From a virus, in the UHGV virus genome UHGV-0315696: DNA of 17,381 nucleotides. One strand, 5' to 3'. The translations under genes and the position numbers were made by a program. The first letter of the stretch is position 1, and the number at the start of each line of letters is the position of its first letter. The notes below the pieces were generated by a model, which had not been told where the DNA came from, ran no database searches, and saw nothing but the letters and a program-made list of their open reading frames with translations. Below, in pieces: positions 849-2,475 of this stretch.

Positions 849-864
849 ATAACAAATTTGTTAT
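849..864. promoter_or_regulatory. Perfect 16-bp palindrome ATAACAAATTTGTTAT overlapping the toxin start codon; candidate operator of the toxin-antitoxin operon
   Basis: Read directly from the sequence. It is preceded by TTGAAT (838..843) and TATATA (845..850) promoter-like hexamers. Type II TA operons are typically autoregulated by the antitoxin at a palindromic operator. Confidence 0.4.
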
Positions 865-1204
865 GTTTACTCTCATGAACTACATTATCGAATACTACAG
901 TGACGAGGTTGAAGCTGAGATCCTTTCTCTTCCTGAGACCTTACAAGCCCGGTACATTCGGTACACGGAGAAAATGCGTATTTACGGAGCTAATCTTGGT
1001 TCCCCGCATACAGAGGCATTTGGCGACGGTTTGTTTGAAATCCGCCTTAAGGGCTCGGAAGGCATAGGGCGTGTTTTTTACTGCACGCTAAAAGGAAAGC
1101 GAATCATTATGTTGCATAGCTTTGTAAAGAAAACGCAAAAAACTCCACCTGCCGAGCTTAGAAAAGCTGAAACCAGAATGAAGGAGGTTAAGCATGACTG
1201 GTAA
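863..1204 (+). CDS. HigB-like toxin (Gp49 / RelE-ParE superfamily addiction-module killer)
   Basis: About 113 aa from the ATG at 863 (MFTLMNYIIEYYSDEVEAEILSLPETLQARY...GDGLFEIRLKGSEGIGRVFYC...). The size, the motifs, and the 11-nt overlap with a downstream HTH gene are typical of Gp49-like toxin/antidote pairs. An alternative start is the ATG at 875; the track's 737 start is an upstream extension. Confidence 0.65.
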   Translation: MFTLMNYIIEYYSDEVEAEILSLPETLQARYIRYTEKMRIYGANLGSPHTEAFGDGLFEIRLKGSEGIGRVFYCTLKGKRIIMLHSFVKKTQKTPPAELRKAETRMKEVKHDW

Positions 1205-1502
1205 ACGTACCCCACCTACCATGACACACGATGAAATGGTAGAAAAAATGTTGTCTAACCCCGCAGTAAAAGCAGAATACGACGCCATCGCCGATGAATT
1301 CGCACTACTTGATGAAATGCTGGCAGCACGAAAAGAAGCTGGCTTAACCCAGGCTGAAGTTGCTGAACGTATGGGAACAAAAGCGACTGCGATAACCAGA
1401 ATGGAAAGCAATCTTGCATCAGGTACAAGCGGCCCATCATTTGCCACACTGAAAAAATTCGCCCGTGCTACAGGGAAAAAACTCCAGATCCGCTTCGTTT
1501 AA
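1194..1502 (+). CDS. XRE-family HTH antitoxin (HigA-like addiction-module antidote)
   Basis: 102 aa with an HTH segment (LTQAEVAERMGTKATAITRME) and a start overlapping the toxin stop. The toxin-first gene order matches HigBA-type modules. Confidence 0.65.
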   Translation: MTGKRTPPTMTHDEMVEKMLSNPAVKAEYDAIADEFALLDEMLAARKEAGLTQAEVAERMGTKATAITRMESNLASGTSGPSFATLKKFARATGKKLQIRFV

Positions 1503-1514
1503 CTCTCCACTACC

Positions 1515-1538
1515 GCGCCGTCATTCTGGCGGCGCTTT
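1515..1538 (+). terminator. Weak terminator-like hairpin after the TA operon
   Basis: GCGCCG (1515..1520), a 9-nt loop, CGGCGC (1530..1535), then only TTT; weak U-tract. Confidence 0.25.
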
Positions 1539-1556
1539 ACCCCAGAGAAATATCAA

Positions 1557-1802
1557 TCACCGGATTACCACATCCCACTCCGGCTCCTGCCATCTCAAAT
1601 CCGGTGAATCATTTCTCTCAGGAATAACCATTACGTCCTTTTCCCTTCGCTCCCTTTCTATCGCCATCACAGCCAATGCTGCAACCATGATGTATTTTTG
1701 TTCGTCGGTTCCTGTTTCATAACGACGCATGAGGGTAAACTCGGGGCGATCAGTAACCTCAATGATTTCGTTAATTTCTTTAATTTCGCGAGGAATATCC
1801 AT
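1557..1802 (-). CDS. Hypothetical small protein (81 aa)
   Basis: ATG at 1802..1800 (MDIPREIKEINEIIEVTDRPEF...) preceded on the - strand by a strong SD AAGGAG (complement of 1812..1817) at 9-nt spacing. Its start overlaps, divergently, the start of the 1801..2475 gene. No family recognised. Confidence 0.35.
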   Translation of the reverse strand: MDIPREIKEINEIIEVTDRPEFTLMRRYETGTDEQKYIMVAALAVMAIERERREKDVMVIPERNDSPDLRWQEPEWDVVIR

Positions 1803-2475
1803 GGGTTTAGTCTCCTTTGATATCACATGCCCGCACTGTTTAAAAGAGCGAGCTGTTATTGAGGCATTTGCCGAAAAACAAATTGAAAAAACACCTTTTT
1901 TTAACGTCGCTTTTGTATGCAGAAGTTGTCATCGAGGAGGTGTTGCTATTGTTGAAATCCCATCAGACCACTATCACGGTCCCATGGCGGAAAGCCAGAA
2001 AAAAGACCTCGATATTCTGATTTCAGGAAATAGCCAGTACCGTTTCCGCAAGATCTATCCTGTGGTCAAAAAAATTACCGCACCAGAATATACGCCCCCG
2101 GTTGCAGACCGTACTTTTGTTGAGGCAAAAGAGGATTTACAGAGGAGGCGGTACGACACAGTGGTTATTCTTTGTCGCAGAGTCCTCGATATCTCCACGA
2201 AAAAACTGCTCGGCGATGAAGCAGGAAAAGAATCGCTGTCGCAACGTATTCAGATGATTTACAAAAAAGGCCTGATCACTGAACAGATGAAGGAATGGGC
2301 TCATATTGTACGAATTGATGCCAATAAAGCAGTTCATACAGATGAAGTTTTCACACCAATTGAGGCAAGCCAGATCCTGAGTTTTACCGAAATGTTTTTA
2401 GTCTACGCCTTCACTCTGCCTGCAATGGTGGAAGCCAGACGTGAACAAAAAAGATCAGATTCAGCCTCTATATGA
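1801..2475 (+). CDS. Zinc-ribbon protein with a C-terminal DUF4145-like (HEPN-like) domain; candidate abortive-infection/defense protein
   Basis: ATG at 1801 with GAGG 7 nt upstream. N-terminal CPHC...CRSC pair; the C-terminal region (VVILCRRVLDISTKKLL...AHIVRIDANKAVH...) resembles the DUF4145 signature as I recall it. Opposite orientation to the flanking phage operon. Domain call is from memory, not a search. Confidence 0.55.
   Translation: MGLVSFDITCPHCLKERAVIEAFAEKQIEKTPFFNVAFVCRSCHRGGVAIVEIPSDHYHGPMAESQKKDLDILISGNSQYRFRKIYPVVKKITAPEYTPPVADRTFVEAKEDLQRRRYDTVVILCRRVLDISTKKLLGDEAGKESLSQRIQMIYKKGLITEQMKEWAHIVRIDANKAVHTDEVFTPIEASQILSFTEMFLVYAFTLPAMVEARREQKRSDSASI

Follow-up and report, generated by a model that had tools for sequence, protein, structure and literature searches.

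The window analysed here is a 17,381-nucleotide (nt) stretch of the virus genome UHGV-0315696, which gene content and profile searches identified as covering the immunity and early genes of a lambdoid prophage. Between positions 839 and 2475 it contains a toxin-antitoxin (TA) pair, a gene encoding a zinc-ribbon/DUF4145 protein and a small gene on the opposite strand whose start overlaps that of the DUF4145 gene. An earlier sequence-only reading of the window had joined the toxin, the antitoxin and the DUF4145 gene into one anti-phage island. The region holds the following features, with protein lengths in amino acids (aa).

839-867, + strand: putative TA promoter, TTGAAT (839-844), a 17-nt spacer and TATGTT (862-867)
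851-862: perfect 12-bp palindrome AACAAATTTGTT inside the spacer of the TA promoter, likely operator of the antitoxin
875-1204, + strand: toxin gene, 109 aa, Gp49/HigB-like (RelE/ParE superfamily); PF05973, phrog_2523, PGAP
1194-1502, + strand: antitoxin gene, 102 aa, XRE-type helix-turn-helix (HTH); HTH_3
1515-1535, + strand: GC-rich hairpin of 9 bp, then CUUUACCCC, where the antitoxin and small genes converge
1557-1802, - strand: small gene, 81 aa; phrog_8371 (E 6.8e-56 over 81/81 positions), PGAP-annotated
1791-1794: AGGA, Shine-Dalgarno sequence (SD) of the DUF4145 gene, inside codons 3-4 of the small gene
1800-1803: CATG junction, with the small-gene ATG at 1802-1800 (- strand), the DUF4145 ATG at 1801-1803 (+ strand) and 2 nt in common
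1801-2475, + strand: RAZR-like gene, 224 aa, Cys4 zinc ribbon and DUF4145/HEPN domain; PF13643
1812-1817: CTCCTT, read as AAGGAG, SD of the small gene, inside codons 4-6 of the DUF4145 gene
1828-1830, 1837-1839, 1918-1920 and 1927-1929, + strand: zinc-ribbon cysteines C10, C13, C40 and C43
2311-2313, 2323-2325 and 2335-2337, + strand: HEPN residues R171, N175 and H179

Profile searches bore out the gene calls of the sequence-only reading. The toxin, called Gp49-like, matched PF05973 with 94 bits (cutoff 23.9, E 4.6e-27) and phrog_2523 (E 2.6e-42) and was named 'type II TA system RelE/ParE family toxin' by PGAP, the HTH antitoxin matched HTH_3 with 43 bits (cutoff 23, E 3.6e-11), and the third gene, called zinc-ribbon DUF4145-like, matched PF13643 (E 3.9e-9) and encodes four invariant cysteines. 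Their orientation, antisense to an early-right (pR-type) operon, was confirmed as well. The cassette structure and the functional coupling read into these genes were wrong. The three + strand genes do lie between - strand flanks as described but are not consecutive, as the apparent gap at 1503-1800 is not intergenic and contains the - strand gene 1557-1802. This gene and the terminator-like hairpin at 1515-1535 divide the TA pair from the DUF4145 gene, contrary to one independently transcribed three-gene cassette. Two start codons were also revised. The toxin start was likelier at 875, which is used by PGAP, than at 863 (phrog_2523 alignment of 2-109 against 2-108 of 108), and the DUF4145 reading frame starts at 1801 rather than 1729, with M1 invariant in 27 homologs and AGGA located 6 nt upstream.

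The toxin-antitoxin pair and its variable slot

Judged by its sequence, the TA pair is an ordinary HigBA-type type II module. The toxin gene comes first and overlaps the antitoxin gene by 11 nt, and the nearest solved relatives of toxin and antitoxin were the two chains of the same HigBA complex, 6af3_A (HigB) and 6af3_B (HigA). The likeness to HigBA modules such as that of Streptococcus pneumoniae (PDB 6af3) covers the toxin-first order, the overlapping genes, the best match of both chains and a palindrome in the promoter, whereas the window proteins are distant (E 7e-5 and 1.4e-3) and the window TA is one of several interchangeable prophage cassettes. The TA promoter was not flagged by a strict sigma-70 consensus scan of the window, and the palindrome was missed by an automated repeat search and confirmed by eye and by pattern search. 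The palindrome occurs once in the window, with 0.14 occurrences expected, and the -35 element, the palindrome and the -10 element were all kept in loci where the toxin was only 71% identical while adjacent bases varied. The palindrome is likely the operator of the antitoxin, which would make the TA autoregulated. The hairpin at 1515-1535 had a minimum free energy (MFE) of -19.1 kcal/mol (z -4.84) and none of 200 shuffled sequences was as stable. It was kept together with the small-gene block in a prophage having a different TA and is a probable, weak-tailed terminator of the TA operon.

The sequence-only reading had placed these genes in a prophage hotspot, which held in that the site is a variable accessory slot with other TA families in other E. 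coli prophages. Among E. coli prophages with the same backbone, the slot between the small gene and the antirepressor gene was occupied by ParD, a hypothetical gene and HigA, by TumE and an HVO_A0114-family protein, or by a different RelE/ParE and HTH pair. Across 5,426 complete E. coli genomes, the full-length window TA was present in 12 and the small-gene/DUF4145 block in 36. The last 69 nt of the antitoxin gene (1434-1502) were found as an unannotated remnant of 94-96% identity in dozens of Shiga-toxin (Stx) prophage genomes without this TA, including O157:H7 (e.g. NZ_CP089034), and in one locus (L002) it is flanked by HigA on one side and a hypothetical gene on the other. Recombination during TA cassette exchange probably left this remnant as a scar.

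A set of 104 family loci (13 from GTDB genomes, 80 from IMG/VR and the rest from earlier finds) was searched for the window TA and the small protein. By tblastn over these loci, the window TA was detected only adjoining DUF4145 genes at least 97% identical to that of the window, which were near-identical E. coli/Shigella copies, and was not detected adjoining diverged homologs. No TA domain was located beside the DUF4145 gene in approximately ten Pfam-annotated contexts of other genera. Homologs of the small protein were encoded directly upstream, in divergent orientation, in loci where the DUF4145 protein was only ~35-53% identical. Across prophages, the DUF4145 gene co-varied with the small - strand gene and not with the TA, and the functional coupling of TA and DUF4145 protein that had been proposed did not stand, the window TA being confined to the near-identical copies and the slot holding other TA families. 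We hold with high confidence that the TA and the DUF4145 gene are independent units. The TA part is ordinary and its slot documents the swapping of TA families.

The zinc-ribbon/DUF4145 protein and the small divergent gene

Systems of the kind to which the DUF4145 gene belongs were characterised between 2022 and 2026. RAZR (ring-activated zinc-finger RNase), identical to PD-T7-4 of E. coli UMB1727, consists of a Cys4 zinc ribbon and a DUF4145/HEPN RNase domain with catalytic residues R146 and H154 (Zhang et al., Nature 2026, PMC13017515; PDB 9y9c). It is a single gene, non-toxic alone, whose product builds a 24-mer around the portal or Erf-like rings of phages, and nonspecific cleavage of single-stranded RNA and abortive infection (Abi) were shown experimentally (PMC13017515). 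Its zinc ribbon, of the RPB9/TFIIS class, sets the specificity and is the most variable part (PMC13017515).

The window protein has the same architecture over ~220 aa, with an N-terminal Cys4 zinc ribbon (CPHC...CxxC) of RPB9/TFIIS type, a proline-rich linker and, at the C-terminus, a DUF4145/HEPN domain. Its R-x3-N-x3-H motif can be aligned with that of RAZR position by position, and both C10/C13/C40/C43 and R171/N175/H179 were invariant in 27 homologs. The RAZR sequence was rebuilt from two database fragments and its family was then aligned. Against this family alignment hhalign gave an E value of 4e-5 and a probability of 70% over the HEPN part, with R171 on R146 and H179 on H154 (an R-x7-H dyad), and BLASTP against RAZR gave 24% identity over 141 aa (E 3e-5) covering the linker and HEPN domain. 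The family profile matched the RAZR chain 9y9c_OA weakly (E 0.09), the zinc-ribbon segment had weak profile matches to RPB9/TFIIS ribbons, among them 1qyp, on which the RAZR paper relied, and a single-sequence search of the PDB with the DUF4145 protein returned no match. The PADLOC model for PD-T7-4 matched 16 of the 27 family members (best E 2.8e-7) and matched the window protein marginally (E 0.0022, profile positions 64-158 of 211). In an AlphaFold2 (AF2) model, residues 4-52 formed a four-strand beta module with a per-residue confidence (pLDDT) of 86-95, and HEPN/MNT structures were among the fold neighbours. The PHROGs family of the protein is phrog_1305, labelled 'DNA binding protein'.

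On these comparisons the window protein is best placed in a distant sister family of RAZR, with its architecture and catalytic motif, and is not RAZR proper. Its identity of 24% to RAZR is restricted to the linker and HEPN domain, and the zinc ribbons of the two cannot be aligned. RAZR, a stand-alone sensor-effector in its 2026 description, has been seen in an integrase island, whereas the window family is prophage-borne and antisense, with most of its members forming a mobile two-gene unit. It is likely that the zinc-ribbon/HEPN protein is a RAZR-like Abi effector, by analogy with the characterised system. Of the anti-phage role claimed in the sequence-only reading for the island, what stood was the role of the DUF4145 protein, which is plausible in view of the architecture and catalytic motif shared with RAZR/PD-T7-4.

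Two observations concern the DUF4145 protein and its gene more narrowly. The pLDDT of the AF2 model fell below 50 only at residues 172-179 (2314-2337), the loop between the catalytic R171 and H179, which recalls RAZR, where the conformation of the active site could not be resolved and oligomer geometry is presumed to determine it. In NZ_CP145707.1 (E. coli S1-CAM-02-A) the DUF4145 gene was broken by an insertion of the IS3 family; the match ends at base 673 of 973 and the features annotated at the broken gene are a transposase and hypotheticals.

The small gene was annotated by PGAP in every related genome and phage record. Its product was modelled by AF2 as a three-helix core (residues 1-57, with pLDDT >90 for residues 1-50), followed in the E. 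coli form by an acidic, disordered, Trp-containing tail. The gene is under purifying selection, with a median pairwise ratio of nonsynonymous to synonymous changes (dN/dS) of 0.19 and a maximum of 0.39 (54 pairs, 44 codons). A chance antisense reading frame was ruled out by the PHROG match, the dN/dS of 0.19 and the conservation across genera. The small-protein family is tiny. It forms 63 clusters when grouped at 90% identity and has 39 representatives at 50% in a collection of 1.84 billion proteins.

The small gene was present at the CATG, with its ATG at position +1 relative to the DUF4145 start, for 37 of 65 distinct DUF4145 proteins, and the loci yielded 39 distinct small proteins with identities to that of the window down to 24% (19-sequence sample). 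A reverse search of IMG/VR with the small protein found that 51 of 59 loci abut a DUF4145 gene at the CATG. The eight unpaired loci represent one E. coli lineage in which the small protein is 93-95% identical to that of the window and the homology ends right at the start codon. When small-protein clusters were the starting point of look-ups, the pair was seen in five of five cases (Klebsiella, Alcaligenes, Morganella, Serratia and Raoultella). Four of these had the 2-nt start overlap, and in Serratia the gene caller set the DUF4145 start 12 nt further upstream. Overall, the pair was present in at least eight genera and at least four phage-genome positions, including the replication/nin junction (E. 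coli, Yersinia and Morganella), the lysis-terminase gap (Klebsiella and Raoultella), the inside of the lysis cassette (Serratia) and the early region near an ERF gene (Alcaligenes). Since these positions differ, the pair moves as a unit, and the small gene as a mere backbone gene was rejected as the leading explanation on the same ground. We are reasonably confident that the small gene is a functional partner of the DUF4145 gene. A literature search for RAZR/PD-T7-4 returned no more than the Nature paper and a review, and the overlapping-start partner gene appears to be previously undescribed.

Further defence or counter-defence genes were located nearby in prophages with the pair. In the Yersinia prophages with the pair (L013-L015, 9490-10410) a BstA_C-domain gene adjoins cI, in Klebsiella and Raoultella (L170/L173/L178) an Acb2/Tad1-hairpin gene is present in the same lysis-terminase gap as the pair, and in Raoultella (L177, 1450-2226) an Abi_alpha gene lies directly beside the DUF4145 gene.

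The junction has an unusual layout, with overlapping starts and mutually antisense genes. The CATG was kept in all paired loci. Of 33 distinct junctions, 31 had an SD for the DUF4145 gene within the small gene. An SD for the small gene lay within the DUF4145 gene in 16 of the 33, compared with 4 of 26 unpaired homologs at the same position. As each SD lies inside the other gene, each mRNA must cover the start region of the other in antisense. In 38 of 40 non-redundant loci the flanking open reading frames (ORFs) shared the strand of the small gene (58,248 aa versus 8,718 aa), and the DUF4145 gene is therefore systematically antisense to the phage operon, of which the small gene is part.

Promoter-like sites upstream of the small gene were few across the family in a looser scan, with none in the window, and the pattern fits expression of the small gene by read-through from the upstream lytic operon, antisense across the DUF4145 gene. 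For the DUF4145 gene itself, the looser family-wide scan found no conserved promoter position, and the upstream DNA was not conserved among the E. coli, Pantoea and Citrobacter loci. Unpaired homologs too have almost no promoter room outside the coding sequence of the neighbouring gene, as those of Pantoea (L004/L005, 5001) and Citrobacter (L006/L007, 5001) start only 33 nt from a divergent neighbour (an HNH gene and a small terminase gene). Read-through from the TA may be a source of transcription of the DUF4145 gene in E. coli only. As a general source it was set aside, being inapplicable in the other genera, where no TA was seen.

A proposed role in lysogeny and induction

We propose that the region comprises two independent accessory units antisense to the early-right operon, one of which is a module of a RAZR-like RNase and a small gene, and we rate this explanation as a whole as somewhat better than even. 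Unit 1 (839-1535) would be a HigBA-type operon with an mRNA-interferase toxin and its own operator and terminator, located in a TA slot exchanged by recombination. Unit 2 (1557-2475) would be a two-gene module in which the RAZR-like RNase is paired head-to-head with the small three-helix protein. In the lysogen, the RNase would be expressed from a putative promoter within the small gene and guard against superinfection. By analogy with RAZR/PD-T7-4, the zinc ribbon would sense an oligomeric protein of the invading phage, upon which the HEPN RNase would cleave RNA and abort the infection. After induction, pR-type (or late) transcription would cross the RNase gene in antisense, occlude its ribosome-binding site and start, and end its synthesis. 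The same lytic transcript would yield the small protein, which would bind and neutralise pre-existing RNase, so that ring-forming proteins of the phage itself (portal or recombinase; the window prophage has RecT) would not trigger self-abortion. As the small gene would always be oriented with the lytic operons, its mRNA would have to traverse the entire RNase gene in antisense, and production of the small protein would be limited to lytic growth.

The specific role of the small protein as a self-immunity factor or inhibitor acting against the RNase is a possibility that we place below even. Two known systems offer parallels. TERi of Listeria phage phi10403S consists of TerI and anti-TerI1/2 (bioRxiv 10.1101/2025.02.27.640495). 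As in the window, its defence gene lies opposite the early lytic operon, with the TERi self-immunity genes inside the lytic operon and expressed on induction; the window has a like layout, with cI on the + strand and cII, O, P, the small gene and the antirepressor gene (ant) on the - strand. TERi differs in that its proteins and mechanism are unrelated (a terminase inhibitor rather than an RNase) and its start codons do not overlap, and self-immunity in the window is what we infer. In BstA/aba of the Salmonella prophage BTP1 (Owen et al. 2021, PMC8585504), an Abi protein encoded by the prophage likewise has its own self-immunity determinant, aba, lying across the start of the defence gene. Unlike the small gene, aba is not protein-coding but a DNA element of 63 bp, and the BstA protein is unrelated to the window RNase.

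Several results weigh against the proposed model. The resemblance to RAZR is weak and of marginal significance, extending over no more than the linker and HEPN domain, and PADLOC, with 95 of 211 profile positions aligned, would not accept the window protein as PD-T7-4. The inhibitor role of the small protein is argued from context, and searches of Pfam, PADLOC and fold databases gave it no relative in any of them. The partner is not required for activity, because 28 of the 65 family members (the 212-aa subclade and a Pantoea type) are without a small gene and canonical RAZR is a single gene that is non-toxic alone; the genes of the 212-aa subclade lie divergently upstream of the small terminase gene, with an ordinary SD and no CATG. 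Conversely, the small gene is found without the DUF4145 gene in one E. coli lineage, in ~10-12 of 48 complete genomes and, as cluster P0237, on 170 contigs. The SD of the small gene was present in only 16 of 33 junctions, and a consensus sigma-70 scan found no promoter for the DUF4145 gene in the window. The detection of TAs near diverged homologs used the sequences of this TA, together with Pfam labels in ~10 contexts. As a separate observation, the small gene was shortened to 32 and 39 codons beside an intact DUF4145 gene in two IMG/VR loci (L052:3904-4002 and L053:3883-4002), so that the partner can decay without loss of the DUF4145 gene.

Other explanations of the region were weighed against the same data. 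The small protein might be a constitutive component of the defence, either as an antitoxin of the HEPN RNase in the manner of a type II TA or as a co-sensor or adaptor. HEPN toxins often have dedicated protein antitoxins, and HEPN/MNT structures among the fold neighbours of the model, the tight co-occurrence and the purifying selection would all agree with such a component. The two genes are, however, divergent, mutually antisense and not co-transcribed, with few promoter-like sites before the small gene. RAZR is a non-toxic single gene, homologs without the partner make up 28 of 65, and the co-orientation of the small gene with lytic operons in 38 of 40 loci would be unexpected for a gene needed in the lysogen, which leaves this explanation unlikely. 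That the small gene is an unrelated backbone gene of the nin region, paired with the DUF4145 gene by linkage and not by function, is distinctly unlikely. Its orientation with the backbone operon, its persistence in E. coli prophages without the DUF4145 gene and its lack of a recognisable domain are what such a gene would display, but the pair occurs at four or more phage-genome positions across Gamma- and Betaproteobacteria, always with the 2-nt start overlap, the small gene alone was found only in the single E. coli lineage, and 39 representatives at 50% identity among so many proteins is the footprint of a specialised partner.

The zinc-ribbon/DUF4145 protein could also be a nucleic-acid-binding regulator that benefits the phage rather than a defence protein, as zinc ribbons often bind nucleic acids and the label of phrog_1305 points the same way. 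This is improbable given the invariant R..N..H of the HEPN domain, the moron-like and systematically antisense placement of the gene with respect to phage operons, its location in accessory hotspots of prophages that also carry Abi_alpha, Acb2/Tad1 and BstA genes, and the Abi RNase that is its nearest characterised relative. Coupling of the TA pair and the DUF4145 gene in one anti-phage cassette, for example with the TA as sensor and the HEPN protein as executor, was judged highly improbable. The window and ~20 complete E. coli genomes have these genes as same-strand neighbours, the weak U-tail of the hairpin at 1515-1535 would possibly allow some read-through, and scans of the window found no promoter of the DUF4145 gene's own. 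Against this, a - strand gene lies in between, the window TA was undetected beside homologs less than 97% identical, unrelated TA families adjoin the same DUF4145 block, and the annotated contexts in other genera were free of TA domains.

The proposed two-unit model with an induction-specific small protein would have consequences beyond this prophage. A partner acting as an inhibitor or off-switch would address the general problem of how prophages carry Abi effectors that recognise conserved phage structural proteins and yet keep their own lytic cycle alive, and would provide a natural inhibitor of a RAZR-type RNase. A bolder version, which we offer tentatively, is that the small protein is a dedicated anti-RAZR-like self-immunity factor made from the lytic transcript only, that the CATG overlap, in which each gene contains the ribosome-binding site of the other, is a hard-wired either/or switch between defending the lysogen and replicating the phage, and that the small genes standing without the RNase gene in some Stx-type prophages of E. 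coli are portable anti-defence against lysogens with the RNase. If true, a prophage could keep an Abi RNase directed at conserved ring-shaped phage proteins and yet be induced without self-abortion. The module was found in Stx-type prophages and in other lambdoid ones, with E. coli, Shigella, Klebsiella, Yersinia and Proteus-group bacteria as hosts, and may shape the spread of phages, including Stx and therapeutic phages, among them.

Surrounding prophage region

Over positions 560-2520 the window was 98.7% identical to the chromosome of E. coli G1/2 and 97.7% identical to phage PhiR5_2, and was also related to the Shigella Stx phages 75/02 and POCJ13. The genes around the two units are:

554 to beyond the left end of the window, - strand: ORF6N/P22-AR antirepressor gene (ant)
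2499-2518: GC hairpin of 7 bp between the convergent DUF4145 and DUF977 genes, with the DUF977 stop codon in its loop
2508-2945, - strand: DUF977/Ren-like gene
2955-3725, - strand: DUF1627 gene
3751-4491, - strand: DnaC-like gene
4498-5580, - strand: O-like replication gene, an intact ORF of 360 aa with a (Glu-Gln)n repeat
6570-7283, + strand: cI
elsewhere, - strand: cII and cro-type genes, P
elsewhere, + strand: KilA-N gene, N, ExoVIII-like gene, RecT, YqaJ and integrase

From its gene content (cII, O-like, DnaC-like and ant), the - strand is the pR-type early-right operon, and the + strand genes between 560 and 2500 therefore run against it. The O-like gene, intact in the window, was annotated as frameshifted in E. 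coli G1/2 (L001, 9919-11012), the closest complete genome. The hairpin at 2499-2518 had an MFE of -14.5 kcal/mol on the + strand (z -2.7), and its role as a terminator is uncertain because it has no T-run.

Rfam matches were located on the - strand of the window at 609-832, between the TA pair and the antirepressor gene. These included isrK at 719-796 (75 bits, gathering threshold (GA) 50), the C4 antisense RNA at 609-693 (74 bits, GA 45) and the c4 a1/b1 target at 757-809 (42 bits, slightly below GA). All of these come after a promoter-like site of the - strand (832-803) and a hairpin resembling a terminator (740-724), and the segment looks like an RNA-controlled antirepressor operon of the P1 immI or Gifsy-1 isrK type, divergent from the TA promoter.

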